A stretch of 64,000 bases of DNA from Anaerolineae bacterium (GCA_034431435.1 DAOUDG010000084.1:78591-142590), one strand, 5' to 3'; positions 3,741-60,645 are shown, numbered from the stretch's first letter. Translations and numbers: made by a program. Notes: a model not told the origin generated them from the sequence alone.

Positions 3741-6374
3741 ATGTCTGCACCCATTCTAGCCACCAAGCTCTACATTCCCACACCCCCGGCCAGGGTGGTG
3801 CGCCGCCCGCGGCTGGTCGCGCGGCTGAACGAGGGCGTGCGCCACAAGCTGACCCTGGTCTCAGCCCCGGCCGGCTTCGGCAAGACGACCCTAGTCAGCG
3901 AGTGGGTTGCCGAGGCCGAGCGGCCGGTCGCCTGGCTGTCGCTAGACGGCGGGGACAACGACCCCGCCCGCTTCCTGGCTTACCTCGTAGCGGCCCTGCA
4001 AACCGTCACCCCGAAGGTGGGCGACAGGGTATTGCCCGTCCTCGAGTCCCCTCAGCCGCCACCGACCGAGTGGATGCTGACCACGTTGCTCAACGAAGTC
4101 GCCGCTCTCGCCGTTGAACTCGTCCTGGTCCTCGATGACTACCACGTCATCGAGGCGAAACCGGTGGACGAGGCCCTCCGTTTCCTGGTGACTCACCTGC
4201 CACCCCAGATGCGCCTGGTCATCGCCACCCGGGAGGATCCGCCGCTACCCCTGGCGCGGCTACGCGCCAGGGGCGAATTGACCGAAGTACGCGCCGCCGA
4301 CTTACGCTTTACCCCCGCCGAGGCCGCCCACTTCCTCAATGGGGCGATGGGTCTCGACCTCACGGCGGAGGACATCGCCGCGCTGGAGACTCGCACCGAG
4401 GGCTGGATCGCTGGCCTGCAACTGGCCGCGCTTTCGATGCAGGGTCACGACGACCCGGCCCGCTTCATCGAGTCCTTCACGGGCAGCCACCACTTCATCC
4501 AGGACTATCTCATCGAGGAGGTCTTGCAGCAGCAGCCCGACAACGTGCAGACGTTTCTGCTGCGCACCTCGATTCTCGACCGCCTGTGCGGCCCGCTGTG
4601 CGCCGCCGTCCTGAGTAGCGCCGCGACCGCCGCCCAGGACACCCTGGAATCCCTCGACCAGGCCAACCTCTTCGTCATCCCCCTGGACGACGAGCGTCGC
4701 TGGTACCGCTATCATCACCTGTTCCGGGAACTGCTGCGCCAGCGCCTCGGCCAGACCGGGGCAGACGTGGTAGAGTTGCACACCCACGCCAGCCAGTGGT
4801 ACGAGGACAATGGCCTGGCGATTGAGGCCTTCCACCACGCGGCGGCCGCCAATGATGTCGAGCGCGCGGAGCGGCTCATCAGCGGCGACGGGATTCCCCG
4901 CCACCTTCGCGGCGCGGTGACAGCCATCCTATCCTGGCTGTCATCGTTGCCCAAGAGCGTGTTGGACGCTCGGCCGGGGCTGTGGTGGCGCTATGCCTCG
5001 CTGCTGCTGGTCAGCGGTCAGACGACGGGGGTGGAAGAGAAACTCCAGGCGGCATTGGCTGCCCTGGGAAACGCGGCGGAGGACGCCGAGACCCGCGCCC
5101 TGGTCGGCCGCATCGCCACCGCACGGGGCGTGCTGGCTCTCACGCGCTACGATGTCGACGCCATGCTGACCCAGTCGCGCCTCGCCCTGGCGCACCTGCC
5201 CCCCGAAGACCTGACACAGCGAGCAAACGCGACCTGGATGCAGGGGCAGGCCTACCTGTGGCGAGGGGATCGAGGGGCGGCCCGCCAGGCCCTGACGGAT
5301 GCCGTATCCCTCGGCCAGGCGGCTGGCAGTGTCTTTGTCACCATGCTGGCAACCATCGTCCTGGGACACGTCCAGGAACTGGAAAACGACCTGCATCGAG
5401 CCGCCGACACGTACCAGCGCGCCTTGCAGATGGCCGGCGATCAGCCGCTGCAAATTGTCAACGAGGCGCATCTGGGCCTGGCCCGCATCCTCTACGAGTG
5501 GAACGACCTGGCGGCCGCCGAGGAACACGGGCGGCAAAGCCTGGACCTGGCGCGGCAGTACGACGCGGTTATCGACCGCTTCATCGTCTGCCAGGTGTTC
5601 CTGGCTCGGGTGCGCCTGGCCCAGGGCGATGTCGCGGGGGCCGCCGCGATGTTGGCCCAGGCCGCCCACGAGGCGCGCCAACGCAACTTCGTGCACCGTA
5701 TCCCCGATGTGGCCGCCGCCCAGGTGGCGGTCTTGCTGCGCCAGGGCGAACTGGCGGCAGCGGCGCGGCTTGTCGAGGCCCACGACCTCCCCATGAGCCG
5801 CGCCAGGGTGTCCCTGGCCCAGGGCGACCCGTCGGCCGCCCTCACGACCCTGGAACCGCTGCGCCGCCACGCCGAGAGCATGGGCTGGGCGGATGAGCGG
5901 CTCCAGGTCGCGGTCCTCCAGGCCGTTGCTCTGGATGCGCAGGGCGACCGGGACGCGGCGGTACGGACCCTCGATGACGCGCTGGCGCTGGCCGAGGCGG
6001 GCGGTTTCATCCGCATCTTTGTCGACGAAGGCCCCCCGATGGCCCAACTTCTGTTCGCGGCGGCGGCGCGGGGCAGCGCGCCGGAGTACGTTGGCCGACT
6101 TCGGGCCGCCTTCGCGACCGGCCAGCGAGCGACTGAACCGCCTGCCCCTCGTCTCCCCGCCTCCCCCGCCCACCCCCTGGCGGAGCCGTTGAGCGAACGC
6201 GAGCTAGAGGTACTCCGCCTCGTCGCCGAGGGCCTCTCCAATCGCGAGATTGGCGAGCGGTTGTTCCTCGCCTTGAATACGGTCAAGGGCTACAACCGGG
6301 TTATCTTCGAGAAGTTGCAGGTCGCAAGGCGGACCGAAGCGGTAGCCCGGGCACGCGAACTCGGCCTGCTATGA
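3741..6374 (+). CDS. LuxR-family large ATP-binding (LAL/MalT-like) transcriptional regulator
   Basis: N-terminal 'KLYIPTPP...LVSAPAGFGKTTL' P-loop NTPase typical of MalT/LAL regulators. TPR-like middle region. C-terminal LuxR HTH (LSERELEVLRLVAEGLSNREIGERLFLALNTVKGY). Confidence 0.85.
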   Translation: MSAPILATKLYIPTPPARVVRRPRLVARLNEGVRHKLTLVSAPAGFGKTTLVSEWVAEAERPVAWLSLDGGDNDPARFLAYLVAALQTVTPKVGDRVLPVLESPQPPPTEWMLTTLLNEVAALAVELVLVLDDYHVIEAKPVDEALRFLVTHLPPQMRLVIATREDPPLPLARLRARGELTEVRAADLRFTPAEAAHFLNGAMGLDLTAEDIAALETRTEGWIAGLQLAALSMQGHDDPARFIESFTGSHHFIQDYLIEEVLQQQPDNVQTFLLRTSILDRLCGPLCAAVLSSAATAAQDTLESLDQANLFVIPLDDERRWYRYHHLFRELLRQRLGQTGADVVELHTHASQWYEDNGLAIEAFHHAAAANDVERAERLISGDGIPRHLRGAVTAILSWLSSLPKSVLDARPGLWWRYASLLLVSGQTTGVEEKLQAALAALGNAAEDAETRALVGRIATARGVLALTRYDVDAMLTQSRLALAHLPPEDLTQRANATWMQGQAYLWRGDRGAARQALTDAVSLGQAAGSVFVTMLATIVLGHVQELENDLHRAADTYQRALQMAGDQPLQIVNEAHLGLARILYEWNDLAAAEEHGRQSLDLARQYDAVIDRFIVCQVFLARVRLAQGDVAGAAAMLAQAAHEARQRNFVHRIPDVAAAQVAVLLRQGELAAAARLVEAHDLPMSRARVSLAQGDPSAALTTLEPLRRHAESMGWADERLQVAVLQAVALDAQGDRDAAVRTLDDALALAEAGGFIRIFVDEGPPMAQLLFAAAARGSAPEYVGRLRAAFATGQRATEPPAPRLPASPAHPLAEPLSERELEVLRLVAEGLSNREIGERLFLALNTVKGYNRVIFEKLQVARRTEAVARARELGLL

Positions 6375-6658: not shown

Positions 6659-7152
6659 ACACCAGGCACACGAGTGCAGGCTTCGAGCGCCGACGAATGG
6701 TGCTCTCAACGCTGTGGATCTTCGCGGTCCTCAACTACATCTACGCGGACATCTACACACTGTTCTTCAATCCGGTCTTGCAGCCGGAGGTGACCAAGAG
6801 GTTCGCCGAGGGCTACGTGGGGGACATTCAGATTACGCAAGGGTTCGTTCTGGTGACGGCGATCCTGATGGAGACGGCCATTGCCATGGTACTGCTGTCC
6901 CGCGTGTTACCCTATCGCGCCAACCGCTGGGCGAACATCCTGTCGGGCGGGCTACATACCTTGTTCGTCGCGTGGTCGCTGCTCGGCGACACGCCGACTG
7001 CCTTCTATGCAATGTTCGCAGCGATCGAGATCGCCTGCACCCTGTTCATCGTGTGGTATGCCTGGAGGTGGCCCGTCGTTGCTGACCAGCCGGAGGGATT
7101 TCACGCCATCCAGGACAACCCGCAGGGCAGCGCTTCGGTGTCTGGCGATTAG
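6655..7152 (+). CDS. Hypothetical integral membrane protein (DUF6326-like, 4 TM)
   Basis: AAGGAG RBS 6 nt upstream of the ATG. 165 aa with four hydrophobic helices (LSTLWIFAVLNYIYADIYTLF...). Confidence 0.6.
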   Translation: MNTRHTSAGFERRRMVLSTLWIFAVLNYIYADIYTLFFNPVLQPEVTKRFAEGYVGDIQITQGFVLVTAILMETAIAMVLLSRVLPYRANRWANILSGGLHTLFVAWSLLGDTPTAFYAMFAAIEIACTLFIVWYAWRWPVVADQPEGFHAIQDNPQGSASVSGD

Positions 7153-10119: not shown

Positions 10120-11115
10120 ATGAACGCAACGGTGTATACACAGTACGGACCACCCGAGGTGCTTCACTGCCAGGCAGTAGCCACGCCCCTGCCCACGGAC
10201 AACGAGATACAGGTGCGGGTCAGCGCCGCGTCCGTCAACTACGGGGACATCCTCGCCCGTGACTTCGGGAACCTCTCCCCGCGTGAGTTCAACATGCCCA
10301 TGCTGCTGTGGCTGCCGGCGCGGCTGAGCTTCGGGGTCCGCACGCCCCGCAAGCCCATCCTGGGCAACGAGTTTGCGGGGACCGTCGCGGCCGTGGGGGC
10401 CAGCGTCAGCCGCTTCAGGGTGGGCGATCGCGTGTTTGGCTATCTAGGCCCGCGCATGGGCGCGTACGCCGAGTACCTCTGTCTGCCCGAAGACGGAGCG
10501 GTCGCCCTGACGCCGCGCACCATGACCGACGCGGAAGCGGCGACCGTGCCCTACGGGGCATTGATGGCGTTGGGGCTACTGCGCAAAGTGGGCATCCAGC
10601 CAGGCCAGCGGGTGCTAGTCAATGGGGCCAGTGGTGGGATCGGGTCAGCCGCCGTCCAGCTCGCCAAGTACTGGGGCGCGGAGGTCACCGGCGTATGCAG
10701 CGCGCCCCGGCTGGCGATGGTGAAAGCCCTGGGGGCGGACAGAGTCATCGACTACACCCGCCAGGACTTCACGCAGCAGAACGAGACCTACGATCTCATC
10801 TTTGATGTGCTGGGGCGGAGTTCGTTTGCCCGCTGCAAGCGCGTGCTGACGGCGAACGGCGTCTATCTGCTGGCCAGCTTCAAGTCGAGGCAGCTCGGCG
10901 AGATGCTCTGGACCTCCGTCGCGGACTCTCAGAAAGTCGTGTGTGTGCTGGCCAGCGAGAAGGCCGACGATCTGGACTTCATCAGGCAACTCATCGAGGC
11001 CGGGAAGTACAGGGCCATCGTCGATCGCTGTTTTCCCCTGGCACAGGCCGCCGAGGCTCACAGGTACGTGGAGGATGGACATAAGCAGGGAGCCGTCGTC
11101 ATCACGATGGGCTGA
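10120..11115 (+). CDS. NADPH:quinone oxidoreductase / MDR family paralog
   Basis: MNATVYTQYGPPEVLH...VNGASGGIGSAAVQLAKYWGA. Paralog of the preceding gene. ORF opens at 10090 but the ATG at 10120 gives the canonical N-terminus. Confidence 0.8.
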   Translation: MNATVYTQYGPPEVLHCQAVATPLPTDNEIQVRVSAASVNYGDILARDFGNLSPREFNMPMLLWLPARLSFGVRTPRKPILGNEFAGTVAAVGASVSRFRVGDRVFGYLGPRMGAYAEYLCLPEDGAVALTPRTMTDAEAATVPYGALMALGLLRKVGIQPGQRVLVNGASGGIGSAAVQLAKYWGAEVTGVCSAPRLAMVKALGADRVIDYTRQDFTQQNETYDLIFDVLGRSSFARCKRVLTANGVYLLASFKSRQLGEMLWTSVADSQKVVCVLASEKADDLDFIRQLIEAGKYRAIVDRCFPLAQAAEAHRYVEDGHKQGAVVITMG

Positions 11116-11116
11116 C

Positions 11117-11143
11117 GCCCCCCGTGCGCGAAACGGGGGCTTG
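11117..11143 (+). terminator. GC-rich hairpin directly after the oxidoreductase stop (putative terminator)
   Basis: gccccccg-tgcgcgaaa-cgggggc immediately 3' of the TGA at 11113-11115. Only a weak T-tract (ttgtcg). Confidence 0.3.
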
Positions 11144-11288
11144 TCGCGCCCCGATGATGAAACCGCGCGGACGCAACCAGGCTTGGCGCAGCCGTCGGCG
11201 TCCCCCTATGACCATGATACCCCTCTAGGCGGGGTGTCCAATGGAGAACCGTTCACCCAACGGGAAGCTTAGGGGCGTGATGGCTGAC

Positions 11289-12077
11289 TCACCGGAAGTA
11301 GACGCGGCGACCCGTCAGGCGGCTGATCACCTGATGCAAGACGTAGATGACCACGCCGATTACCAGATCGATGACCAGGGTGAGGGTGAACGCAAACAGT
11401 AGCGTGTCGAGGGTGCGGCGAACCGCAGCCAGTAGCTCCGGCGGCGGCTGGCGGACGCCCGTCAGGATGACGACGATGGTAGCCAGGGCGATGAGGTAGA
11501 GGGCGGCCGCCCACCAGTCGCGCCGGTCGGACGCGCTCGGCATCAGGCTGTTGCTGATGCTAAACGTCAGGTACAGCCACAGCCAGGCGTCAGCCACGCG
11601 GAACAGGTCCGCCAGGTGGGTGACGACGGCGGTGATGATGCTCGTCGGCGGCAGATCGACCGCGAGCGCCTGGCGAAAGCCATAGTTGCCGATGAGGACA
11701 ATCGCGGCGGTGCCGAAGATAAACGGGGCGACACCAATCAGGCTGGCGCGAATCGGGTCGGTCTTGCCAATCATCACGTAACCCATCGTCACCTGCACCT
11801 GCTGGCCGCGAGTGACATGGCGCGACGGCCCCAGCGAGAACTGACCCGTGGGGACGAACAGCAGCTTGGCGGTCAACCAGTGGCTAAACTCGTGGAGGAA
11901 GATGCCCGGCGCGAGCACGAGGAAACGCAGCCAGATGGCGCGGTAGTCGCTGCCCAGGGTGATGACGCCCAGCGCGTGCAGGTGAATCATCACCCAGCGC
12001 TTGAGCAACGTGACAGGGACCATGAGCAGCCCCAGCCATAGCAGGCTGGTCCAAAGATCGGGCATGGCGGGCGTCAT
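11289..12077 (-). CDS. Integral membrane protein with intramembrane HExxH motif (putative membrane-embedded zinc metalloprotease-like, DUF3267-like)
   Basis: 262 aa, multiple TM helices, HEFSHWLTAKLL (HExxH) inside a hydrophobic segment. Confidence 0.55.
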   Translation of the reverse strand: MTPAMPDLWTSLLWLGLLMVPVTLLKRWVMIHLHALGVITLGSDYRAIWLRFLVLAPGIFLHEFSHWLTAKLLFVPTGQFSLGPSRHVTRGQQVQVTMGYVMIGKTDPIRASLIGVAPFIFGTAAIVLIGNYGFRQALAVDLPPTSIITAVVTHLADLFRVADAWLWLYLTFSISNSLMPSASDRRDWWAAALYLIALATIVVILTGVRQPPPELLAAVRRTLDTLLFAFTLTLVIDLVIGVVIYVLHQVISRLTGRRVYFR

Positions 12078-12093
12078 CAGCCAGTGGTGCTCA

Positions 12094-12163
12094 TTGGTAC
12101 GGCGGGACCAGGGACGGAGGACGAAGGACCACTAGCGACCAGCCCTTTGGTCCTTCGTCCCTG
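12094..12163. repeat. Long imperfect inverted repeat / hairpin (GGACCAGGGAC...GAAGGACCA : TGGTCCTTCGTCCCTGGTCC), member of a short intergenic repeat family
   Basis: About 24-bp stem with a 16-nt loop between the tpiA stop (12177, minus) and the start of 11289..12077. A degenerate copy sits at 60576-60645 after pcrA. Confidence 0.55.
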
Positions 12164-12176
12164 GTCCCTGGTCATC

Positions 12177-12941
12177 CTAGCCCTTCGCCTGGGCGGCGGC
12201 CTGGATGATGGCCGTGAAGTCCGCGCTCTTGAGGGCGGCGCCGCCGATCAGCCCGCCGTCGATGTCAGGCTCGCTCAGCAACTCCAGCGCGTTCGCCGCG
12301 TTCATCGAGCCACCGTACTGGATGCGGATGGCGTCGGCGACAGCGTGGTCGTACCGCTGGGCCAGGACGGCGCGAATCTCGCGGTGAACCGCGTTCGCGC
12401 CCTCCGGCGTCGCGGCGCGGCCCGTGCCGATGGCCCACACTGGCTCGTAGGCGACCACTGTGCCCTGCGCCTGCTCCGCGCTCAGCCCCTCGTAGGCGGC
12501 CCGCACCTGGCGCGCCACGACCGCACTGGTGTGGCCTGCCTCGTTCTCCTCCAGCGTCTCCCCGACGGCGATGATGGGGATGAGGTTGTGAGCCAGGGCC
12601 GCATGGACCTTCTTGTTCACTGTCTCATCGGTCTCGCCGAACATCTTGCGCCGCTCCGAGTGGCCGAGGATGACGTAGTCCACCAGACCTTGCAGCATGA
12701 CCGGCGTCACCTCGCCTGTATAGGCCCCCGACTTCTCCCAGTACATGTTCTGCGCGCCGACCTTGAGGAATGTCCCCTTCAGGCGCTCGGCGACAGGGTA
12801 GAGGGCCGTGAAGGGCGGACAGACGACCATGTCGACGCCCTGGACGCCCTCCAGGCTGATCAGCAACTCGTTGACCAGGGTCAACGCCTCCGCTGCGGTC
12901 TTATTGGCTTTCCAGTTTCCGGCAATGATAGGTTTGCGCAT
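12177..12941 (-). CDS. tpiA: Triosephosphate isomerase
   Basis: MRKPIIAGNWKANKT...IAYEPVWAIGTGRAATPEG...QYGGSMN: canonical TIM motifs. Confidence 0.95.
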   Translation of the reverse strand: MRKPIIAGNWKANKTAAEALTLVNELLISLEGVQGVDMVVCPPFTALYPVAERLKGTFLKVGAQNMYWEKSGAYTGEVTPVMLQGLVDYVILGHSERRKMFGETDETVNKKVHAALAHNLIPIIAVGETLEENEAGHTSAVVARQVRAAYEGLSAEQAQGTVVAYEPVWAIGTGRAATPEGANAVHREIRAVLAQRYDHAVADAIRIQYGGSMNAANALELLSEPDIDGGLIGGAALKSADFTAIIQAAAQAKG

Positions 12942-12950
12942 AGGGCCTCC

Positions 12951-15434
12951 TTAAGGCTCACGGGTTTCGATGTCGGCGAGGTCGCGTTTGATGACGACCA
13001 GCGCATAATCATCAAATTGAGGGGCATCCTCAGTGAAGGTTGTGACAGCGGCGATGATGGCCTCGATGATGTCGGCGGCGTTCTGGTTGTGATACGTATG
13101 GACCGTCTCAGCGAGACGCGCGTCGCCGAAGTCGGCCTCCTGTGGGTCGATGGCCTCAGTCACGCCGTCGGTATAGAGCACGAGCACATCGCCCAGGTTG
13201 AGAATCGTCTGGCACTCCTGCAACTGGATAGTATCCACCGCGCCGAGGACGATGCCTCGGCTCTCCAGGTATTCGGTAGTACCGGTGGCGGCGCGATAGA
13301 CCAGCGGCGGCGTGTGGCCGGCGTTGACGTAGGTGAGAGCGCCCGTCGCTGGCTCCAAGATACAGTAGCACAGGGTCACGAACATGTCGGCGCGCGTGTC
13401 GTTGAGCAGCAGCGCGTTGGCGCGGACCAGCGCCTCGGCGGGTGGGCGGCGGCCCAGCACCGAGGCGCGAATGGAACTCCGCGCCACGGCCATAAAAATG
13501 GCGGCCGGGATCCCCTTGTCCGACACATCGGCGATGACGAACCCCCAGCGCCCCTCTGTCAGGGCCAGGAAGTCATAGAAGTCGCCCGCCATTTCCAGGG
13601 CGGGCCGCCAGAAGGCCGCCGCCTCCCAGCCTTCGATCTGGGGCGGACTTTCGGGCATCAGCGACGACTGAATCTCGGCCGCCAGCGCCAGTTCCTGCTC
13701 AAGCCGCTGCCGCGCCAGCGTCTCCTCGTAGAGGCGCGCCTCCTCGATGGCGATGGCGATCTGGTCGGCCAGCGTCTGCAACACGAACAGGTCGTCGCGG
13801 TCAAAGGCGTTGAGGCGGCTGCTCTGCACGTCCAGCACACCCACCACCCGCGACTCTACCTTCAGGGGCACGGCCAGTTCAGACCTGGTGCCGCGCAGCA
13901 CGGCCTCTGGGTCGCGCACGTAGCGCGGCTCGGCGGCCACGTCGTTCGCCATCAGCGGCTCGGCCTGGTTGGCGACCCAACCAATGATACCCCGATCGGT
14001 AGGCACGATGTATCCCCGCGCGCGCCGCGCCTCATTCAGGTAGCCCGTGCTGGCGCGGAAGACGGCCTCGCCGCGGTCGTTGACGGTCAGAATCTGCACG
14101 AAATCATAGCCGAAGCTGGCCTGCACCAGCTGCACCACCCGGCTGAACAGGTCTTCCAGGTTGATGATCGCCGCCACCTGACGACTCACCTCGCTAATGG
14201 CGCTCAACTGGATAGCGCGCTTCCACTCACGCTCGTACAGGCGCGCATTCTCGACGCCCACGGCCAACTGGCTCGCCAGAGTGGTCATCATGCGCGCCTG
14301 GTTGTAGCTGAACGCCCCCGGCGCCGGACTCTGCACCAGGATGCCGCCGATGACATCGCGCCCTGACTGGAGGGGCACAGCCAGCACCGAGCGCGTGTCA
14401 GACGCGAGGGTCAGGCCGGGCAAGGCATCGGCGGCGGCGGTGGCGCGCAGCGCCTGCGCTTCGGGCGCCTCCCGCAGCCACTCGGTGACGCCAGCCAGCG
14501 GCATCTGGTCCAGGGGCTGCCGCTCACCGTTCTGCACCCACAGCGCCGGCCGTAGCGCGTTCTTCTCGCTGTCCAGCAACACCAGCCGGAAGTCGGAGCC
14601 GCTGACGATACGCGTCGTGTACTGGTAGGCCAGATCCGCCAGGCGCTTGACGTCCATCTGCGCGCCGACGATGGCCTGCCCCAGCTCCTCGAAGGTCGTC
14701 AGTTCCGTCACTCGCTCGCCCAGGGCCTGCCGTGTGCGGCCCAGGCTCTGGATGAGCAGGCTCACGGCCAGCAGCATCAGGGCCAGAATGCTGAACTCAG
14801 CTGGTCCCAGCACCGCATACACGGCCGCCATGAGCGGCGCGAAGGGCAGGGGAATCAGCTCCACCGCGATTGCGGTGGGTCCGATGCGCCGCAGCGTGCC
14901 CCACGCCGCCCGCCAGCCGTCGACGAGGGCCACGCGCAGGAACCAACCCACTGTGCCAATCATGAACCATGTCAGGAACAGCCCCAGCATGGGTAGGGTC
15001 TGGGGGATCTGGATGTGGCTGGGTGGGATGCGCCCCCCCAACGCCAGGTATACCCAGCCCCCCGCCAGAGCCATGATGGCGCTCAGGCCAGCCTCGAACA
15101 GGGGCGCTGCCACGTGAGTCCAGGCGTTGAACGGGTAACGGCGGAAGGTATGGGCCGTGAGATAGATGGTCTCGCTGCTGGCCGCGACCAGCGCGCCAGT
15201 GATGGGGCCGAACAGGAGCAGCGCCGCGATATCGACAATCCCCACCAGGCTGTGGGTCGCGTCGGGGACAATCCGAAACCCCGCCCGCTTGACCATCGTC
15301 GACAGGAGAATGAAGACGACCACCGCCAGTGGCGGCCCGGCGATGCCGTCGCGCAGAATGAGATAGGCCAGCGCGCCAAGCCCGCCGATGGCGACCAGCG
15401 TCTGGTAGATGCGCGCACCGAGAGTAAGTCTCAT
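12951..15434 (-). CDS. Membrane-anchored GAF-GAF-PP2C (SpoIIE/RsbU-like) serine phosphatase
   Basis: 827 aa. About 8 N-terminal TM helices, two GAF domains, C-terminal PP2C/SpoIIE block (AGDFYDFLALTEGRWGFVIADVSDKGIPAAIFMAVARS...LVLYTDGVTEA). Confidence 0.85.
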   Translation of the reverse strand: MRLTLGARIYQTLVAIGGLGALAYLILRDGIAGPPLAVVVFILLSTMVKRAGFRIVPDATHSLVGIVDIAALLLFGPITGALVAASSETIYLTAHTFRRYPFNAWTHVAAPLFEAGLSAIMALAGGWVYLALGGRIPPSHIQIPQTLPMLGLFLTWFMIGTVGWFLRVALVDGWRAAWGTLRRIGPTAIAVELIPLPFAPLMAAVYAVLGPAEFSILALMLLAVSLLIQSLGRTRQALGERVTELTTFEELGQAIVGAQMDVKRLADLAYQYTTRIVSGSDFRLVLLDSEKNALRPALWVQNGERQPLDQMPLAGVTEWLREAPEAQALRATAAADALPGLTLASDTRSVLAVPLQSGRDVIGGILVQSPAPGAFSYNQARMMTTLASQLAVGVENARLYEREWKRAIQLSAISEVSRQVAAIINLEDLFSRVVQLVQASFGYDFVQILTVNDRGEAVFRASTGYLNEARRARGYIVPTDRGIIGWVANQAEPLMANDVAAEPRYVRDPEAVLRGTRSELAVPLKVESRVVGVLDVQSSRLNAFDRDDLFVLQTLADQIAIAIEEARLYEETLARQRLEQELALAAEIQSSLMPESPPQIEGWEAAAFWRPALEMAGDFYDFLALTEGRWGFVIADVSDKGIPAAIFMAVARSSIRASVLGRRPPAEALVRANALLLNDTRADMFVTLCYCILEPATGALTYVNAGHTPPLVYRAATGTTEYLESRGIVLGAVDTIQLQECQTILNLGDVLVLYTDGVTEAIDPQEADFGDARLAETVHTYHNQNAADIIEAIIAAVTTFTEDAPQFDDYALVVIKRDLADIETREP

Positions 15435-15449
15435 GCCACCTTCGAAGGC

Positions 15450-16211
15450 TTAGCCAAAGGCCGCAACGGCCTGCTCTTCCGTGTCGTACATGGGCAGAAT
15501 CATGTCAAAGCCTGCCATGCGGAAAATCTTGCGCACCGCCGGGTTGAGGTTGCACAGCTTCACATCGCCCTGGTTGCGCCTCGCTCGCCGTACCGCCAGC
15601 AGTAGCGTGCGCAGGCCGGTGGAACTGACATAGGTCACCTGCTGGAAGTCAACGACCAGACGATGAAGGTTCTCGTTCGCCAGGTTCTGCAGTTCAGCCT
15701 CCAGATACTGGGAGCCGTTGGCGTCGAGCCGCCCGCGCGGTACGACGATCGTGACCCCGTGGCCGTGGCGCGACGGGTGGCTGGACACGGCCCGCCGCCG
15801 CCGCACCATGATGAGTTCGTTCCATCCCTCCTCATCGAAGCGAAAGTCTACCTGGTCCATCAACCGGCGCATGAAGTATAGCCCCAGGCCGCCTATCTCG
15901 CGCTTCTCCAGCGGGGCAGAGATGTCGGGTTCCGTCACCAGGTTGGGGTCGAAGGGGCGGCCGTGGTCGCGCAGCGTGACGATGAAGTCCTCCCCGCGCC
16001 GCTCGGCAATGACCTCGATCGGGCCTTCCTGCGCCTGGTAGGCGTGCTCGATGATGTTGGTCACGGCCTCATCGACGGCCATCTGGATGTAGTAGGCCTC
16101 GTGCTCCGTCATGCCGAAATTGGCCGTCACGTGGCCGATGAACTCGGCAATGCGCGCCAGGTTTTCGGGTCGGCTGGTGACGTTGAGGACGTAGCGGTCG
16201 TTCATAGTCAT
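15450..16211 (-). CDS. Fusion protein: RsbW-like anti-sigma-factor serine kinase (HATPase_c) + STAS anti-sigma-factor antagonist domain
   Basis: N-terminus (MTMNDRYVLNVTSRPENLARIAEFIGH...DEAVTNIIEHAY...REIGGLGLYFMRRLMD) is RsbW/SpoIIAB-like. C-terminus (VTIVVPRGRLDANGSQYLEAEL...VDFQQVTYVSSTGLRTLLLA...FDMILPMYDTEEQAVAAF) is STAS with the conserved phosphorylatable Ser. Start ATG at 16211 has a GGGAG RBS; the ORF-track start at 16289 is upstream of it. Confidence 0.8.
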   Translation of the reverse strand: MTMNDRYVLNVTSRPENLARIAEFIGHVTANFGMTEHEAYYIQMAVDEAVTNIIEHAYQAQEGPIEVIAERRGEDFIVTLRDHGRPFDPNLVTEPDISAPLEKREIGGLGLYFMRRLMDQVDFRFDEEGWNELIMVRRRRAVSSHPSRHGHGVTIVVPRGRLDANGSQYLEAELQNLANENLHRLVVDFQQVTYVSSTGLRTLLLAVRRARRNQGDVKLCNLNPAVRKIFRMAGFDMILPMYDTEEQAVAAFG

Positions 16212-16292
16212 GGTAGGCTCCCAGAACCACAGAGATGGGGGGCTGGCGACTATCGGCCACGCATTGGCCGCCAGTCGCCAAACACCCATCCG

Positions 16293-18854
16293 TCAGCCGC
16301 TTGCGGCCAGTTTTCTCAGAATGACCAGCGTGATGTCATCAAAGGCCGGCTGACCCGCCGCGAAATCGGCGACAGCGCCGACCACTCTCCCTGCCACGTC
16401 GCAGGCCAGCGCCTGGTGCGCGGCGCGGGCCACGGCGAGCAGACGCTCCTCGCCAAAGGCGCCACCCCGACTGTCGATGGCCTCGGTCACGCCGTCGGTG
16501 TACAGCAGCAGCAGGTCGCCCGCCGCCAGGGATGCCGTAGCCTGCTGCCATTCCATGTCGGGCAGAATGCCCAACGCCGGCCCGTGCGCCTCCTGGCCCA
16601 CCCATTCCATGCGCCCATCGGCGCGCAGCAGGAGGGGCGGGTTATGGCCCGCGTTGACGTAGCACACCGTCCCGTCCGGGGCGAGCGTCATGTAGAAGGC
16701 GGTCACGAACATGCTCGACTCAGCATCGGCGGCGATGAGCCGGTTCGATTGGCCGATGGCCCTGGCCGGCGTCGCGTCAGCCAGGATGCTCGCCCGCAGC
16801 AGACTACGGGACACGGCCATGAAGATGGCGGCCGGCGCGCCCTTGTCCGACACGTCGGCGATGACGACCCCCAACCGTCCATCATCCAGCGGCACGAAGT
16901 CGTAAAAGTCGCCCGTCACCACCCGCGCCGGTTCCCAGTGGGCGCACACATCCCAGCCCTCGACGCCGGGCGCAGCGTCGGGTAGGAAGCTGCGTTGGAT
17001 GTGCCGCGCCAGCTCCAGTTCGCGCGCCAGCCGCTGCGCCTCGATCTCCGCCCGCCGTAGTCGCTCGTTCTCGATGGCGATGGCCGTCTGGTTCGCCATG
17101 CCCGCCGCGATCTCCAGCAGACGCGGCGTAAAGCGCGGGTCCTCCAGAGAGGGATCGAGCACCATAGCTCCCACCAGCAGGCCGTGGGCGACCAGGGGGA
17201 CCAACAGGGCCTGCTCCACCTGGAGGGCATCTAGCAAGGCCACGTCGTCGCCCTGGCTGCGCTGGACGAGGATCGGGCTGCGCTCGGCCAGCAGCCGCTC
17301 GAACGCGCGGGTCTGCTCGCTGGTCAGGGCGCGGAAGCGGGCCTCACGGGTGGCGGAGCCGTCCAGCGCCGTGACCAACTGGCGCGGGGCGAAACGCGCG
17401 GCCTCAGAGTCCCACAGGAAGAAGGCGCATTGGCTGGCCCCCAGAAACATGGGTGCGATGCGTCCGACCCGCTCCAGGATATCCTCGATGGTTTCGGCGT
17501 CCCGCAAGTTCTCGGCCACCTGGAGCAGCGCGTTGCGATGCCACGCCTCTTCGGCCTTCTCCTCGTACTCGCGGGCGTTGCGCACGGCCAGCGCCGCCTG
17601 CGCCGCGATAAGGCCCAACAGGCGCGCATCGTCGTCGTCGAAGTGGCTCGGAACCCTGCTATTCACGGACAGGACACCGATGCACTCGCCGTCGAGTTCC
17701 ACCGGCACGGCAACCGCCGACCGCCAGCCGTGCAGCCGACTCAGGTCGGCCTCCACCGGCTCGACCGCCTGTAGCTCGGCCTCGACCACCGGCGCCCGCG
17801 ACGCGAACACCCTCTCCAGCAGGCCGCCCGGCGCCCGCCGCACTTCGCCGTCGCGCCGGATGTCCTCTCGCCACCCCCACGTCGCCAGCATCGAAAGGTC
17901 GTTGGCCTCGCCGTACAGGAGGATGGCGGCGGCGTCGCCGCGCAGCACACTGGCAGCCTCCTCGACGACCATCTCCGTCACCTGCTGCGGGTCGAGGCTG
18001 GACAGCAGGGCCTGCGACAGCCGCAGCAGCATCGCCTGCTCGCGCAGGTGGCGGCCGCGCGCCACATCCAGCAGCCGGGCGCGCTCAATCGCCATGCCCA
18101 GCTGATCGCCGACAGCTCCCAATACGTTCAGGTCGGCGGCGCTGAAGATCTCGCGCGCGGGGGCGGTGACGTTCAGAATGCCGAGCATACGCTTCCGGGC
18201 GCGGATAGGGATGCTGGCGTGGTAGCGGAGGCCGCGCGTGTCGCCCGGCGCATCGGCCAGGCGACTGCACTGGATGATGTTGACAGCCCGCTTCAGCTGC
18301 CCCGTGCGCAACTGGTACTGGCATTCACACTCGGGCAGGCGTCGCAACTCGCGGGCGTCGTCCTCGGCCAGGGCGGGCGGCAGGCCGATAGCGTCGATGG
18401 GCACAAACGTGCCCGTCTCGTCGAGTAGGAACACCCAGCCGGTACTCAGCTCCAGGAGGTCCGTCACCTCGGCCAGGGCGGCCGCCACGGCCTCTTCGAC
18501 CGAGACGGCCTCGTTCAGCCGTTCCGCCACCGAGCGCAGGGTGTGCAGTTCGCGCAACGCGCGCTCCAGGCCCGCGCGCTCATCCAGCCCGCTCATCGCT
18601 TCAGTCTGTTCCTGCCACGCGACAAAGTCGCGCACCGGCGCCAGGCGCTGGCGCAGCGTCTCGCGATCTGGCCGGGTCGTTGCCGCCAGATGGGCGCGAT
18701 ACTTCACCAGGGCCGTGCGGGAGGCGGCCGCCGTAGCATCCGTGGCGCGCAGCCAGTCGAGAAAGGCTGCGACCTCTTTCAGCGCGGCCGACGCCGCCTC
18801 CGGCGCGATGTGCCTCTCTTGTAGGATGCGCGCGTAGTCTGACAAATGCTCCAT
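16293..18854 (-). CDS. Cytoplasmic multi-GAF PP2C (SpoIIE/RsbU-like) serine phosphatase
   Basis: 853 aa. About 90-aa helical N-terminus, then about three GAF domains, then PP2C (TGDFYDFVPLDDGRLGVVIADVSDKGAPAAIFMAVSRS...LLLYTDGVTEAID). Its stop overlaps the next gene's start (16289/16293). Confidence 0.85.
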   Translation of the reverse strand: MEHLSDYARILQERHIAPEAASAALKEVAAFLDWLRATDATAAASRTALVKYRAHLAATTRPDRETLRQRLAPVRDFVAWQEQTEAMSGLDERAGLERALRELHTLRSVAERLNEAVSVEEAVAAALAEVTDLLELSTGWVFLLDETGTFVPIDAIGLPPALAEDDARELRRLPECECQYQLRTGQLKRAVNIIQCSRLADAPGDTRGLRYHASIPIRARKRMLGILNVTAPAREIFSAADLNVLGAVGDQLGMAIERARLLDVARGRHLREQAMLLRLSQALLSSLDPQQVTEMVVEEAASVLRGDAAAILLYGEANDLSMLATWGWREDIRRDGEVRRAPGGLLERVFASRAPVVEAELQAVEPVEADLSRLHGWRSAVAVPVELDGECIGVLSVNSRVPSHFDDDDARLLGLIAAQAALAVRNAREYEEKAEEAWHRNALLQVAENLRDAETIEDILERVGRIAPMFLGASQCAFFLWDSEAARFAPRQLVTALDGSATREARFRALTSEQTRAFERLLAERSPILVQRSQGDDVALLDALQVEQALLVPLVAHGLLVGAMVLDPSLEDPRFTPRLLEIAAGMANQTAIAIENERLRRAEIEAQRLARELELARHIQRSFLPDAAPGVEGWDVCAHWEPARVVTGDFYDFVPLDDGRLGVVIADVSDKGAPAAIFMAVSRSLLRASILADATPARAIGQSNRLIAADAESSMFVTAFYMTLAPDGTVCYVNAGHNPPLLLRADGRMEWVGQEAHGPALGILPDMEWQQATASLAAGDLLLLYTDGVTEAIDSRGGAFGEERLLAVARAAHQALACDVAGRVVGAVADFAAGQPAFDDITLVILRKLAASG

Positions 18855-18898
18855 GACCAGGCCACTCTTCTACGGCGGCCAGCCAGCCGCCGAATGGG

Positions 18899-19234
18899 CT
18901 AGAAACTGCCCACGGCCTCCACGGAGTCGTCATAGATGTTGAAGATGCGGGTGAAGCCCACGAGTTCGATGGTGTCCTTGACGTAGGGCTGGAGTCCCGA
19001 CAGTCGCAGGTCGCCGCGATTCCAGCGCTTGACCGACTTGCGGACGGCCAACAGGACGCGCAAGCCGGCGGAGCTGATGTACGTGACGGCAGACATGTCG
19101 AGGACAAGCTTGAAGTGGCCGCCGTTGATGAGATCGTCCAGGGTCTTCTGCAGCTGCGGCGCGGTCTGGTGGTCGATGCGGCCCACCGGAGCCACCAACG
19201 TGACGCGCTTGAGGTCTTTGGTGCTGATTTCCAT
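18899..19234 (-). CDS. STAS-domain anti-sigma-factor antagonist (RsbV/SpoIIAA-like)
   Basis: 111 aa: VLDMSAVTYISSAGLRVLLA...FNIYDDSVEAV, a classic SpoIIAA fold signature with a conserved Ser. Confidence 0.85.
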   Translation of the reverse strand: MEISTKDLKRVTLVAPVGRIDHQTAPQLQKTLDDLINGGHFKLVLDMSAVTYISSAGLRVLLAVRKSVKRWNRGDLRLSGLQPYVKDTIELVGFTRIFNIYDDSVEAVGSF

Positions 19235-19339
19235 CCAGGCCTCCTAAGGGGGAAATTAGGCATGTCGGGGTCGCCCCCATTATATCACGGCCTGGAAGCC
19301 AGGCGCAAACAGTTTGGCGGAAAGTACGTTGGAACAAGC

Positions 19340-20506
19340 TCAGTCGGCGCGCTCATGTACCATCAGCGCCAGAATCAGCGCCGATATCAGCGTCAGTCCG
19401 GCGGCCAGCGCCACGTTGCCCCACAGCCCCACCGTTGCGTACAGTGGCGGCCCCACCAGCGCGCCAATCACGCGCCCTGTCTGATTACCGGTGCTGTTGA
19501 TGGACACGGACGTGGCCCGCGCTGTCGGCGCCGACTCGCTGACCAGCGGGATCGTGGACACCAGGGTGAACTCGAAGCCGAGCAGGATGAGGGCCAAGGT
19601 GAACACCGCCCCAACCAGACCGTAGCCCGCCAGGAAGGGCAGCAGCGAGTACGCCACCGTCAGGGCCAGCAGCCCCAGCAGGATACCCCGCTTCTTGCCG
19701 ATGCGATCGAGGAAGGCGCTCGATAGCCCCTCGCCGCCCAACTCGGCCAGGCCCGTGGCGATGGATACCGAGCCGAGGGCGGCTGCTCCCAGGCCGAACT
19801 GCCCTTCCAGCCACGCCCCATAGACGATGAACACGATTTCATTCGCCAGCACCAGGCACAGCATCATCGGCCACATCCAACGCACATTGGGCACGCGCAA
19901 CGCCCGCCCCAGGCTACTGAGGATGTGACCGCCGTCGTGGTGGGGCGCGTGGTCGCCGACGGGGAAGGCCCACACAGCCACGACCAGACTCAGCGCGCCC
20001 AGCGCGGCCAGTCCCCAGTAGGGGGCCTGCCAGCCGTAGCGGGCGATGGTCCAGCCCACCAGGGGGATGCCTACCAGGGCGGCCAGCGCCCAGGGTATCT
20101 CCAGGATGCCCGTCGCCCGCGCGCGCATCGCATAGGGCACGCGGTCGCTTATATAGGCAATCGACGTCGGATCGAGGATGACCTTCGCCAGACCCATGCC
20201 GACGAAGCCGACGGCGAACACGGCGAACTGGCTGAAGCCCGCCGCCAGCAGCGCCGTCACGACGAACAGGCCGAGGGCGACCAGGATCAGGCTGCGGCGG
20301 CGGTGGCGGTCGGCCAGCGGCCCGACGCCCAGGCTGGCGTAGCCCGTCGCCGCCCGTAGCGCCATCAACGAGGCCGCCGTCTCCAGGGGCACGCCCAGGC
20401 CGCGCGCGATGAAGGGCAGGAAGGGGTACGCCATGCGCGTCGCCGTGTTGAGCGTCGTCCGCGCCAACACCATCGCCGCCATCGGTTTGCGGAGGGAGGC
20501 GGTCAC
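19340..20506 (-). CDS. MFS transporter
   Basis: 388 aa, 12 predicted TM helices, MFS-type loop motifs (GPLADRHRRRS). Confidence 0.8.
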   Translation of the reverse strand: MTASLRKPMAAMVLARTTLNTATRMAYPFLPFIARGLGVPLETAASLMALRAATGYASLGVGPLADRHRRRSLILVALGLFVVTALLAAGFSQFAVFAVGFVGMGLAKVILDPTSIAYISDRVPYAMRARATGILEIPWALAALVGIPLVGWTIARYGWQAPYWGLAALGALSLVVAVWAFPVGDHAPHHDGGHILSSLGRALRVPNVRWMWPMMLCLVLANEIVFIVYGAWLEGQFGLGAAALGSVSIATGLAELGGEGLSSAFLDRIGKKRGILLGLLALTVAYSLLPFLAGYGLVGAVFTLALILLGFEFTLVSTIPLVSESAPTARATSVSINSTGNQTGRVIGALVGPPLYATVGLWGNVALAAGLTLISALILALMVHERAD

Positions 20507-20591
20507 GAGGGAGGATACCTGTGAGCAATTTGAATGATACAGGCCCGGCGGACATTGCGCCTGCCGGGCCTTGTCGTTGATGGCGGCGCGG

Positions 20592-21821
20592 CTACTGCAC
20601 CGTCACCTGCACCGAGAAGGTCTCGGCGGGGGGGACGCCGGTTTCCCACGGGCGGCGGTAGACCATCTGTAGGGTGGTAGCGCCCGCGCCCGTCGGCTGG
20701 AAGCGAAAGGTCTGCGTGCCTGACGCGCCGATGGCTGCGCTGGCTGGGGTGTACACCGGGTCGCCCAGTTGGGTGAGCAGCGCGTTGGCCGGATCGACCT
20801 GCCAGGTGTAGCCCGTGGTCGGGTTACCCGCCAGGCTGACGACCAGGGTGTTAGCCTGCTGCATGCTGACGCTGCCGCCATTGTTGGCGTCAGTCACTGT
20901 CACATCCTGCCCCGCGCTGGGTGAGGGCGTCGCGGTGGCAGCGGGCGTAGCAGCGGCGGCGGGCGCATCGGCGATGACCACCCGCACCGAGAACGTCCTG
21001 GCCGGGGCGACGCCGGTCTCCCAGGGGCGAACATACACCATCTCCAGCGTGGTCGAGCCGGCGCCCGTTGGCGTGAAGAGGAACGTCTGAACGCCGCCGA
21101 CGCCGGGTGGAGCGTCGGCGGGGCGGGTGTAGGTGGGGTCGCCCTGCGGCTGCAAGAGTGGGTTGGGCGCGGCCTGCCAGGTGTAGCCCGTCGAGGTATT
21201 CGCGCTCAGGTTCACCCGCAGCGTGTCGGTCGGCCTGAGGCGCACCTCGCCGCCGCTATCCTGCTCAGTGACGGTGACGACCGCGCTGGTCGGGCGGCCT
21301 GGCGTCGCCCCACTGGCGGTGAAGGCCTGCTTGACCTGATCGACGGTCATGAACAGCGACTCGTAGGTCGTGGCGGCCGCGCTGCCGTCAGGGTAGGGGT
21401 TCGACTGGGGCAGAAAGGCGACGAAGACGCTCGTCGCTGTCTCGGCGATGGGGACGCCGGGTAGGGCAATCGGCTGGCTCGCCAGGTTGTCCCAATAGGC
21501 CCTGTCGTAGACGTAGATGCTCAACAGCGGCGCTTCGGTCCCGCCGCCGCTGGGCGTGTACACCCAATCGGTGATGAACTTCGTGCCCGGCCGCCGCTGG
21601 TCGGCCGGCGCGCCCCAGTACTCGTACCACCGAAAGCCGTGGCTCACCCATGTCGCGGGTAGCGCCAGGCTGTAGCCTGCCTGCGGGTTGGTATATACGC
21701 CATTCTGAACGCTACCCTGGGGTGCGCCGCTGGGACGGCTGCCCTGGGCGTGACTCGTACCCGCTGCCACGGCGAGTAGCGCGACCGCGACAATCACCGC
21801 CAGTCTCACGCGCGTTGCCAT
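20592..21821 (-). CDS. Secreted protein with two tandem chagasin-family (MEROPS I42) cysteine-peptidase-inhibitor-like domains
   Basis: Signal peptide (MATRVRLAVIVAVALLAVAAGTSHA). Domain 1 approx. nt 20973-21281 and domain 2 approx. nt 20595-20906 each carry the chagasin loop motifs NxxTGYTWQ (NTSTGYTW / NPTTGYTW), GxGG/GASG and RPWE (VYVRPWETG / VYRRPWETG). About 150-aa N-terminal domain of unknown function. Confidence 0.65.
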   Translation of the reverse strand: MATRVRLAVIVAVALLAVAAGTSHAQGSRPSGAPQGSVQNGVYTNPQAGYSLALPATWVSHGFRWYEYWGAPADQRRPGTKFITDWVYTPSGGGTEAPLLSIYVYDRAYWDNLASQPIALPGVPIAETATSVFVAFLPQSNPYPDGSAAATTYESLFMTVDQVKQAFTASGATPGRPTSAVVTVTEQDSGGEVRLRPTDTLRVNLSANTSTGYTWQAAPNPLLQPQGDPTYTRPADAPPGVGGVQTFLFTPTGAGSTTLEMVYVRPWETGVAPARTFSVRVVIADAPAAAATPAATATPSPSAGQDVTVTDANNGGSVSMQQANTLVVSLAGNPTTGYTWQVDPANALLTQLGDPVYTPASAAIGASGTQTFRFQPTGAGATTLQMVYRRPWETGVPPAETFSVQVTVQ

Positions 21822-57202: not shown

Positions 57203-57217
57203 TTGTTCGGAGCCTGC

Positions 57218-60200: not shown

Positions 60201-60568
60201 CCCTGTGGGGGCAGAGCAACCTCACCGAGCCGTCGCGCTTCCTGCGCGACGTGCCCCACCCCCTGGTCGATGCCAGGACCGAGCGCAAAACCGCGCCGCT
60301 GCCACCGCGCCAGGGCATCGCCGCCAGTCGCGGCCTGCCTGGCCCGTCGAGCGCGTCCGCGGCCGGCCGCAACAGCTTCAAGTTCGGCGAGCGCCCCGCC
60401 GCTACCCCGGCCGCCGCCCGCTACCGCCCTGGCGACAAGGTGACGCACCCCGTCTTCGGCGACGGCACGGTCCTGGCGAGCAAGACCAGCGGCGACGACG
60501 AGGAGGTGGACGTCATCTTCAAGGGCGGCGCCAAGAAGCTGCTGGGGAGCTACTTGAAGAAGAAGTAG
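57218..60568 (+). CDS. pcrA: ATP-dependent DNA helicase PcrA/UvrD (SF1) interrupted by an intein
   Basis: Motif I AGPGSGKT, motif Ia, motif II DEFQDTN, motif III split (VVGDEDQ | SIYSWRGA). C-terminal PcrA-type Tudor-like tail (GDKVTHPVFGDGTVL...). 1116 aa from the ATG at 57218, versus about 740 aa for intein-less homologs. Confidence 0.9.
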   Translation: MDLSHLNDRQREAVTAPDGPTLVLAGPGSGKTRVLTYRVAHLVKDRGISPRAIMAVTFTNKAAREMKARLGKVIGEAALAELTIGTFHAVCARILRVDGQYVGLERAFVIFDTDDQTALVKQIVQDLNLNDKLYRPAALLGAISNAKNDLIPPEAYTPPTHWHEIARRVYERYQAALLTNNAVDFDDLLMKTAELLRDNPAVLDKYRRRYAHILVDEFQDTNSAQYQLVRLLAGDGGNLFVVGDEDQCLPAGTPVATPDGPRPIETLAVGNRVTAAHGRGVAGAATIERVREKVYHGPLVSIVTQRGHQLRATPNHMLFARLGLPIDRHYVYLMYRRDKGYRVGLAQGAHGDGVHPELVSGLRQHGNQEHADKLWLLRVCASRAEAQYYEALYAAEYGLPTSVFHTTGRPTALDQPWLDRLYAEIDTEARARRLMADLHLYADYPHHRPKGVAGERLPDRIAVQVTMFSATRRSAGGQWHAHRATLNTTDAALRERLEARGYATRPGRRAAWRWDGQRLAFGEVEGLAAAVSEAGGRLEVARAACLTETRRTDGTTLKFDFHPASHIHPTMIVPVLEDGRIVDDDVVTVEWLDYEGRIYDLDVTAVHNYVAGGLVAHNSIYSWRGADFRNVMRFRDDYPEAQVILLEQNYRSSKNILDAAQGVIRGNRMRHPKALWTEKAEGLKIQVYEAYNEQEEADYVVGEIQRLVARQQARYSDVAVMYRTNAQSRSLEDAFVRRSIPYKLVGSTRFYERREVKDILAYLRLAHNPFDTISLRRVINVPGRGIGDKTVALLWAWAERLDVPPYTALSLLRDAHTAATPLPMPSPFDKRAERALLDFAAILDDMVAAKLALDAQALLDRIIERIGYQDYLRDGTAEGDSRWENVLELRTVAGDYAALPLDEGLPTLLEEVSLVADVDELDEKKDAVTLLTLHAAKGLEYGTVFLVGLEEGILPHKRSLEDPSPDALEEERRLAYVGMTRAQERLYLVYAFRRALWGQSNLTEPSRFLRDVPHPLVDARTERKTAPLPPRQGIAASRGLPGPSSASAAGRNSFKFGERPAATPAAARYRPGDKVTHPVFGDGTVLASKTSGDDEEVDVIFKGGAKKLLGSYLKKK
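57959..59071 (+). mobile_element. Intein (371 aa) inserted in helicase motif III of PcrA/UvrD
   Basis: Begins with Cys (CLPAGTPVATPDG, block A), block B TPNH (LRATPNHMLF), C-terminal blocks F/G (IYDLDVTAVHNYVAGGLVAHN) followed by +1 Ser of the extein (SIYSWRGA). About 220-aa central region, larger than a mini-intein. Confidence 0.85.
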
Positions 60569-60575
60569 GGAGGAC

Positions 60576-60645
60576 GCAGGGCGAAAGACCAACGACCAAC
60601 AGGCCGGTCGCGTGGTCCTTCGTCCTTCGTCCCTGGTCCTTTACC
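60576..60645. repeat. Degenerate second copy of the GGTCCTTCGTCCCTGGTCC hairpin repeat family
   Basis: gcagggcgaaagacca...tggtccttcgtccttcgtccctggtcc between the pcrA stop and the ndk start. Compare 12094-12163. Confidence 0.45.

Follow-up and report, generated by a model that had tools for sequence, protein, structure and literature searches.

Five co-directional genes on the minus strand of an Anaerolineae genome are best read as a single operon, in which a putative partner-switching set of the RsbU/RsbV/RsbW type, with no sigma-factor gene of its own, precedes the triosephosphate isomerase gene tpiA. The genes occupy positions 12177–19234 of a 64,000-nucleotide stretch of DNA from an uncultured Anaerolineae bacterium (GCA_034431435.1 DAOUDG010000084.1:78591-142590), hereafter called the window; positions are counted from its first letter. 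Comparison with related loci shows the first four genes as a lineage-specific elaboration of a cassette that extends across Chloroflexota, with tpiA most likely a passenger. We assign this explanation as a whole, including an operon whose transcription is read from signals in the DNA, a probability of roughly 55%.

Genes and domains of the predicted switch

The five open reading frames (ORFs) have GC contents at third codon positions (GC3) of 0.83–0.89 within a window of 67% GC, which argues that they are real genes. In the order of the predicted transcript, they encode a stand-alone RsbV/SpoIIAA-like STAS protein (111 aa; 18899–19234; Pfam STAS 2.1e-21, TIGR00377 1.5e-22), a cytoplasmic phosphatase termed here PP2C_A (853 aa; 16293–18854; three GAF domains and SpoIIE/PP2C at 1e-49 in Pfam), an RsbW/SpoIIAB-like kinase::STAS fusion (253 aa; 15450–16211; HATPase_c_2 2.9e-27 and STAS 1.9e-20), a membrane phosphatase termed PP2C_B (827 aa; 12951–15434; about seven membrane helices, two GAF domains and PP2C at 1.6e-50) and TpiA (254 aa; 12177–12941; Pfam TIM 5.8e-91). 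ORFs, Pfam matches and GC3 thus bear out a first-pass annotation, made by a model from the sequence alone, which had named five co-directional minus-strand genes with these identities. The nearest homologue of the kinase::STAS protein is 93% identical and comes from an Anaerolineae metagenome-assembled genome (MAG), and many metagenome contigs carry identical loci.

The free STAS protein has a predicted phosphorylation site at Ser55 (codon 19070–19072), a residue invariant in 47 of 47 STAS proteins of the cassette. In the fusion, the kinase domain (15804–16178) is followed by a tethered STAS domain (15468–15761), whose predicted site, Ser197 (codon 15621–15623), is invariant in 23 of 23 sequences and stands in the S-x-G-L context of SpoIIAA Ser58. 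Across 23 sequences, the N box (E48, N52), G1 (D82, G84) and G2 (G107–G110) motifs of the kinase are invariant or nearly so, and the best matches of the kinase domain in both sequence and structure are RsbW, SpoIIAB and mycobacterial UsfX. Its scores lie far below the NCBIfam equivalog cut-offs (RsbW, 59.3 versus 145 bits; SpoIIAB, 47.9 versus 135; for spore_II_AA, 52.3 versus 114.75), placing the kinase in the superfamily and not among the orthologues. A confident AlphaFold2 (AF2) model of the fusion (predicted local distance difference test, pLDDT, 90.8; predicted template-modelling score, pTM, 0.66) gave Foldseek matches with TM scores of 0.8–0.9 to 1tid, 6m36 and 8ih8, which represent the SpoIIAB/RsbW and SpoIIAA/RsbV folds, with both the SpoIIAB and the SpoIIAA chains of solved complexes matched, and the structure of Rv1364c (3ke6) was also among the fold matches. 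STAS domains with a conserved serine, a GHKL serine kinase and PPM/PP2C phosphatases with metal-binding aspartate motifs are all encoded here, and their presence supports a predicted RsbU/RsbV/RsbW-like partner-switching set.

A stressosome (RsbR/RsbS/RsbT) was also considered and was rejected: the free STAS protein has 111 residues without an extra domain, the kinase is closest to RsbW and SpoIIAB, and the N-termini of the PP2C proteins consist of GAF domains or a seven-transmembrane (7TM) domain.

Both phosphatases keep the metal-site motifs GDFYD, DVSDKG, TDG and DDxT/A (DDIT in PP2C_A). Sub-sequence Pfam scans placed the three GAF domains of PP2C_A at residues 117–257 (GAF1, 18084–18506), 287–424 (GAF2, 17583–17996) and 454–596 (GAF3, 17067–17495), ahead of the PP2C domain (16314–16886), and hydropathy gave no transmembrane segment in this protein. 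PP2C_A is confined to the inner part of the window's clade (loci L010, L090, L091 and L093), with none in locus L012. Its helical residues 1–100 (18555–18854) are weakly similar to Phage_int_SAM_1 (E 0.006, below the cut-off), an odd companion of a GAF-PP2C protein.

PP2C_B has about seven membrane helices within its first 235 residues (7TM domain, 14730–15434), followed by GAF1 (residues 260–396; 14247–14657), GAF2 (residues 425–564; 13743–14162) and the PP2C domain (12984–13556). For the 7TM domain, we obtained no Pfam match at E values up to 10, no match to PDB sequences by profile search and no scored match in a word-indexed homologue search. An exhaustive search among 1.84 billion proteins recovered 85 representatives of the transmembrane family, in which the domain is always N-terminal. 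Ten sampled members included four GAF-PP2C proteins, two with GGDEF and one with HD-GYP. The HD-GYP member (P0325) matches Pfam MASE9 (PF20972) at 5e-8, and the transmembrane-family profile aligns with P0325 at 98% probability (hhalign). The 7TM domain of PP2C_B is accordingly homologous to the transmembrane domain of a MASE9-HD-GYP protein, a link to MASE9 that is transitive, via P0325. Invariant residues of the domain are S62, L63, E192 and P195-L196-P197. We take the N-terminus of PP2C_B to be a rare, modular, MASE9-like membrane sensor, as predicted from this distant homology.

Three gene junctions had initially been given as 4–16 bp or overlapping, which holds for kinase::STAS/PP2C_B (15 nt) and PP2C_B/tpiA (9 nt) but not for PP2C_A/kinase::STAS. 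STAS and PP2C_A are 44 nt apart. The near-overlap at 16293/16289 is wrong, the ATG at 16289 being the start of the longest ORF only. The start of kinase::STAS is the ATG at 16211 (253 aa). This assignment follows from the alignment, in which 22 of 22 homologues start at the equivalent position, from the gene calls on identical metagenome contigs, which use the same start, and from relatives whose kinase gene adjoins or overlaps the preceding PP2C gene and has no N-terminal extension. An exact look-up of the 279-aa product of the long ORF came back empty, while the 253-aa form is on record, and the long start was rejected. The junction of PP2C_A and kinase::STAS therefore becomes an 81-nt spacer (16212–16292) that holds a stable hairpin (−47.2 kcal/mol, z −2.9). 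The hairpin has no counterpart in L010, L090 and L093, whose two genes adjoin or overlap, and the spacer could have arisen by insertion or could act as an attenuator within the operon.

Transcription signals and the linkage to tpiA

Upstream of the STAS gene lies a promoter-like site (19279–19308) composed of TTGCGC, an 18-nt spacing and the extended −10 element TGATATAAT (19279–19287), with the Shine–Dalgarno (SD) sequence AGGAGG at 19240–19245. Equally far ahead of the STAS gene, a TGnTATAAT element recurs in L010, L090, L093, L092, L011 and L013, and nearly so in L012, which points to a promoter conserved over 7–8 lineages and predicted at this position. A consensus promoter scan overlooked the site because its −35 element matches at only three of six positions.

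At the far end of the switch genes, the SD sequence of tpiA (GGAGG) overlaps the stop codon of PP2C_B (junction, TAAGGAGG). Within 200 nt ahead of tpiA, no TGnTATAAT or other −10-like element was present in the window, L010, L012, L090 and L093 (in L091 this region is an unreadable run of N), and no terminator-like structure was found between PP2C_B and tpiA in the window. The stop codon of tpiA is immediately followed by a GC-rich hairpin of 74 nt (12104–12177, minus strand; −54.6 kcal/mol, z −5.3; none of 200 shuffles reached this stability), which likely marks the end of the operon, as a terminator or an RNA stabiliser. An Rfam search of 11000–20700 at E values up to 1 returned only sub-threshold miRNA-like matches, to the hairpin. 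With a 9-nt gap, an SD sequence across the stop codon, no promoter-like site upstream of tpiA and a strong hairpin only after it, the simplest reading is that one transcript likely runs from the STAS promoter through tpiA, in agreement with the co-transcription that had been suggested at first.

An element that resembles the post-tpiA hairpin comes after uvrD (~60570–60640). GC-rich hairpins of short repeated units directly 3′ of genes were seen in both the window (GGACGAAGGACC-like units) and L012 (GTCAAAC units, ~6740–6785), where the GTCAAAC hairpin sits between the PP2C gene and tpiA; they look like a family of terminators or of repetitive extragenic palindromic (REP)-like elements. A small hairpin 3′ of the STAS gene was tried as an attenuator and dismissed as not significant (z −1.75).

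TpiA itself matches the TIM family over its full length (1–245/245), scores 188.9 bits against a TIGR00419 cut-off of 130.6 and retains the catalytic motifs NWK at 9, GHSERR at 93 and YEPVWAIGTG at 165. Neither gap nor pgk is encoded within the 64-kb window. The tpiA gene directly follows the gene for the membrane PP2C in the window, L010, L012, L090, L091 and L093, and the linkage was not found in L011, L092 or any more distant cassette that we compared. In L091, the fragmented gene calls are explained by a scaffold gap (a run of N at ~4215–4320) inside the end of the PP2C_B homologue, of which tblastn finds both the transmembrane and the PP2C part. A neighbour-joining (NJ) tree of the kinase::STAS proteins groups all six linked loci into a single clade, with the unlinked L011 and L092 as its sister. 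The linkage thus arose once, and there is no independent recurrence that would argue for functional coupling.

The relatives of TpiA point in the same direction. In L094 and L095, whose TpiA proteins share 62–64% identity, the genes upstream are unrelated and the module is absent, and a homologue of an HExxH membrane protein lies directly 3′ of tpiA in L012, L091, L094 and L095. Because the module-less loci keep this downstream gene, tpiA and the membrane protein form the older unit. The window counterpart (11289–12077, minus strand; 262 aa) is a multi-pass membrane protein with the HExxH motif LHEFSHW, weakly M50-like (Peptidase_M50 E 0.007), and probably not part of the switch. We also tried this protein as a proteolytic output and rejected it, since it pairs with tpiA where no switch exists and, in the window, a hairpin lies between its gene and tpiA. 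As the linkage is confined to one clade and was laid over an older tpiA/membrane-protein pair, tpiA is most likely a passenger and its position an inherited gene order, an evolutionary accident. The comparative genomics therefore speaks against the weight that the first-pass annotation had given to the tie with a glycolytic gene.

The cassette across Chloroflexota and comparable systems

Scanning one genome per species gave 592 relatives, and the best 80 of these 592, almost all of them Chloroflexota, were compared locus by locus using tblastn maps and ORF clustering. Most of the 80 loci hold a core cassette: a STAS protein, an RsbW-like kinase whose second STAS partner is either fused to it or encoded next to it, and a large 7TM-GAF-PP2C protein. 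Kinase and second STAS form a single ORF in 34–35 of the 55 loci with a called kinase ORF. The cassette occurs in Anaerolineae, Roseiflexus, Chloroflexus, Kouleothrix, Oscillochloris and Herpetosiphon giganteus DSM 589. Its cultured carriers are the latter strain and Kouleothrix aurantiaca COM-B, the Chloroflexus and Roseiflexus carriers being MAGs assigned to these genera; its presence in cultured strains as well as MAGs makes experimental study possible.

Beyond the three families of the cassette, no neighbouring family appears in more than nine of the 80 loci. The most frequent ones include a beta-lactamase-like protein, an Mrp ATPase, an O-antigen ligase and a hydantoinase, and none of the common neighbours is sigma-like. 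The 64-kb window contains no Sigma70 domain, and the gene calls of related contigs contain no sigma factor. A motif scan for sigma-70 region 2 and extracytoplasmic function (ECF) signatures, which is heuristic, found no group 1–3 signature in 1.44 Mb of loci plus the window, and its sole match was an ECF-like motif ~7 kb away in two sister loci. An RsbU/RsbV/RsbW-like circuit without a sigma factor, as originally proposed, is thus what we find in the window, in the related contigs and, with respect to conserved neighbours, around the 80 loci.

The significance implied by that absence does not follow, as sigma-less partner switches are common (icfG with Slr1861 and SigC, the chlamydial Rsb system, Anabaena HenR/All4160) and the fusion has a precedent in Rv1364c. 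With the classical Bacillus RsbU/RsbV/RsbW and SpoIIE/SpoIIAA/SpoIIAB systems, the window operon shares its families, namely a STAS antagonist with a phospho-serine, a kinase of the GHKL serine kinase/anti-sigma fold and a sensor PPM/PP2C, and SpoIIE is anchored in the membrane by several helices, as PP2C_B is. In contrast to them, it has no sigma gene, a kinase-STAS fusion, two GAF phosphatases, tpiA in last position and NCBIfam scores below cut-off.

Rv1364c of Mycobacterium tuberculosis (PAS-PP2C-kinase-STAS) has a kinase that phosphorylates Ser600 of its own STAS domain, from which the PP2C domain removes the phosphate (PMC9138534); the kinase-STAS fusion of Rv1364c is also described in PMC10950880. 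In both Rv1364c and the window fusion, an RsbW-like kinase lies N-terminal to a phosphorylatable STAS domain. The 253-aa protein of the window, however, consists of kinase and STAS only, its phosphatases are separate and carry GAF instead of PAS domains, and a free STAS protein is added. Whereas Rv1364c is restricted to pathogenic mycobacteria, the kinase-STAS fusion is widespread in Chloroflexota.

Among described arrangements, the icfG cluster of Synechocystis (slr1856, slr1857, slr1859, slr1860 and slr1861) comes nearest; its kinase, Slr1861, serves as anti-sigma factor to SigC, which is encoded elsewhere (PMC12329169). The cluster comprises two STAS proteins, one RsbW-like kinase, one PP2C and an isoamylase gene, has no sigma gene and is tied to carbon metabolism, so a sigma-less switch that shares an operon with a carbohydrate enzyme is not unprecedented. 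The likeness is one of gene content: neither a kinase-STAS fusion nor a membrane or GAF phosphatase is described there, and the enzyme is an isoamylase and not TpiA. The chlamydial Rsb system (RsbU, RsbV1, RsbV2 and RsbW) resembles the window set in having two STAS antagonists, one kinase and a membrane sensor PP2C; its RsbW acts on the unlinked sigma-66, and its membrane-anchored RsbU is a reported sensor of central metabolites (PMC11619594). The chlamydial genes are nevertheless dispersed and include no fusion, and RsbU has a periplasmic sensor domain in place of a MASE9-like 7TM domain with GAF domains. In Anabaena, the HenR/All4160 switch acts on a polysaccharide biosynthetic enzyme (bioRxiv 10.64898/2026.04.08.717354). 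Our search found no literature that joins RsbW with any Chloroflexota name, and the Chloroflexota cassette appears uncharacterised in the literature searched.

Proposed mechanism, alternatives and further features of the window

In the mechanism that we propose, a housekeeping-type extended −10 promoter would drive STAS, PP2C_A, kinase::STAS, PP2C_B and tpiA, with the transcript ending at the post-tpiA hairpin. Judging from the protein families, the kinase would use ATP to phosphorylate Ser55 of the free STAS protein and Ser197 of its own tethered STAS domain, and the two GAF-regulated phosphatases would reverse this modification, PP2C_B upon a membrane signal and PP2C_A upon a cytoplasmic one. 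Unphosphorylated STAS domains would occupy the kinase and thereby displace a partner protein encoded elsewhere. Most probably, this partner would be a sigma-70-family factor, as in the pairs Slr1861/SigC, chlamydial RsbW/sigma-66 and Rv1364c/SigF, because the kinase resembles true anti-sigma factors and the icfG and chlamydial systems act on unlinked sigma factors. The tethered STAS domain could serve as an intramolecular competitor that sets a threshold, as in Rv1364c. The cassette would have come, once, to lie upstream of tpiA and its HExxH partner, and tpiA would now be read through from the cassette promoter.

Several points weigh against this mechanism. In other bacteria, kinases of the RsbW type and STAS proteins do act on targets other than sigma factors, which by analogy may also apply here. 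The tpiA linkage persists at kinase identities as low as 52% and TpiA identities as low as 61%, as selection for co-expression could explain. Phosphatases apart, the GAF regions match NifA and PtsP best in NCBIfam; the GAF domains of these two proteins sense 2-oxoglutarate and glutamine, and a metabolic signal tied to carbon flux may therefore be an input. Finally, an internal promoter may lie inside the 3′ end of PP2C_B. The target question gives rise to a serious rival, in which the free STAS protein (or else the kinase) would, in one of its phosphorylation states, bind and control a non-sigma client encoded elsewhere, for instance an enzyme, a diguanylate cyclase or a transporter, after the examples of SypA, HsbA and Anabaena All4160. 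STAS proteins with such roles are documented (PMC8256260; bioRxiv 10.64898/2026.04.08.717354; PMC11619594), no conserved sigma gene lies beside the cassette in ~86 loci, and the second STAS occupies the slot that the sigma gene holds in rsbV-rsbW-sigB operons. We consider this output possible, yet rather unlikely, given that the true anti-sigma factors RsbW, SpoIIAB and UsfX are the nearest matches of the kinase domain in both sequence and fold and that both sigma-less comparators, icfG and Chlamydia, are reported to act on unlinked sigma factors.

With regard to tpiA, the gene might be transcribed independently from a promoter of its own inside the end of the PP2C_B gene, so that its position would amount to mere adjacency. 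Chloroflexota promoters are poorly defined, the consensus scan having overlooked even the STAS promoter, and tpiA relatives elsewhere stand alone, outside glycolytic operons. We regard an independent promoter as improbable, as the 200 nt ahead of tpiA lack a −10-like element in the very loci in which the STAS promoter is obvious, the tpiA SD sequence overlaps the PP2C_B stop codon and no terminator separates the two genes in the window. Conversely, co-transcription could have been selected because the switch regulates TpiA or because its GAF domains read triose-phosphate or carbon status. The junction is tight (9–21 nt in the window, L010, L090 and L093, with L091 unreadable at its N run), and the linkage persists at 52% kinase identity (L012). 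A gene for a carbohydrate enzyme is likewise part of the icfG cluster, which influences glucose and carbon metabolism. Reported ligands of chlamydial RsbU are alpha-ketoglutarate and phosphoenolpyruvate (PEP) (PMC11619594), and one partner switch is reported to target an enzyme directly (bioRxiv 10.64898/2026.04.08.717354). Such coupling nonetheless seems highly improbable to us, since the linkage arose only once, within one clade, and is missing from sister lineages and other Chloroflexota cassettes, TpiA is an ordinary 254-aa TIM without an extra domain, the older conserved neighbour of TpiA is the downstream membrane protein and not the switch, and L012 has a hairpin between PP2C and tpiA. 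In its strictest form, with the switch acting directly on TpiA or being set by triose-phosphate or carbon status via the GAF domains, we would give it still less credence. If true, it would imply a post-translational phospho-switch, not a transcriptional one, at the branch point of dihydroxyacetone phosphate and glyceraldehyde 3-phosphate (DHAP/GAP), with the tethered STAS domain replacing the missing sigma factor.

Under the preferred explanation of a Chloroflexota partner switch read through into a passenger tpiA, the components and the logic are familiar, and the distinctive features are the stand-alone RsbW::STAS fusion, the MASE9-like/GAF phosphatase and the second phosphatase with three GAF domains. 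The comparison defines a phylum-wide, self-contained cassette without a linked output, made up of a STAS protein, an RsbW-like kinase that is usually fused to STAS, and a 7TM-GAF-PP2C protein. The tethered STAS domain offers a natural test of how intramolecular competition tunes a partner switch, and the tpiA linkage would imply constitutive transcription of the signalling genes along with a housekeeping gene.

The window also holds features outside the operon. Two genes upstream of the STAS gene, a 409-aa protein (20592–21821, minus strand) carries two chagasin-type Inhibitor_I42 domains and is followed by a major facilitator superfamily (MFS) transporter; neither is conserved beside the cassette in other lineages. 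No tRNA was found in the 64-kb window. The uvrD gene mentioned above (57203–60568, plus strand) is an ORF for a UvrD/PcrA helicase of 1121 aa with Intein_splicing and Hint_2 matches inside its helicase domains, and it apparently contains an intein. Between 32657 and 44880 on the plus strand, GT4 and GT2 glycosyltransferases accompany a Wzm/Wzt-type ATP-binding cassette (ABC) exporter, indicating a locus for the biosynthesis of a polysaccharide or an O-antigen-like product.

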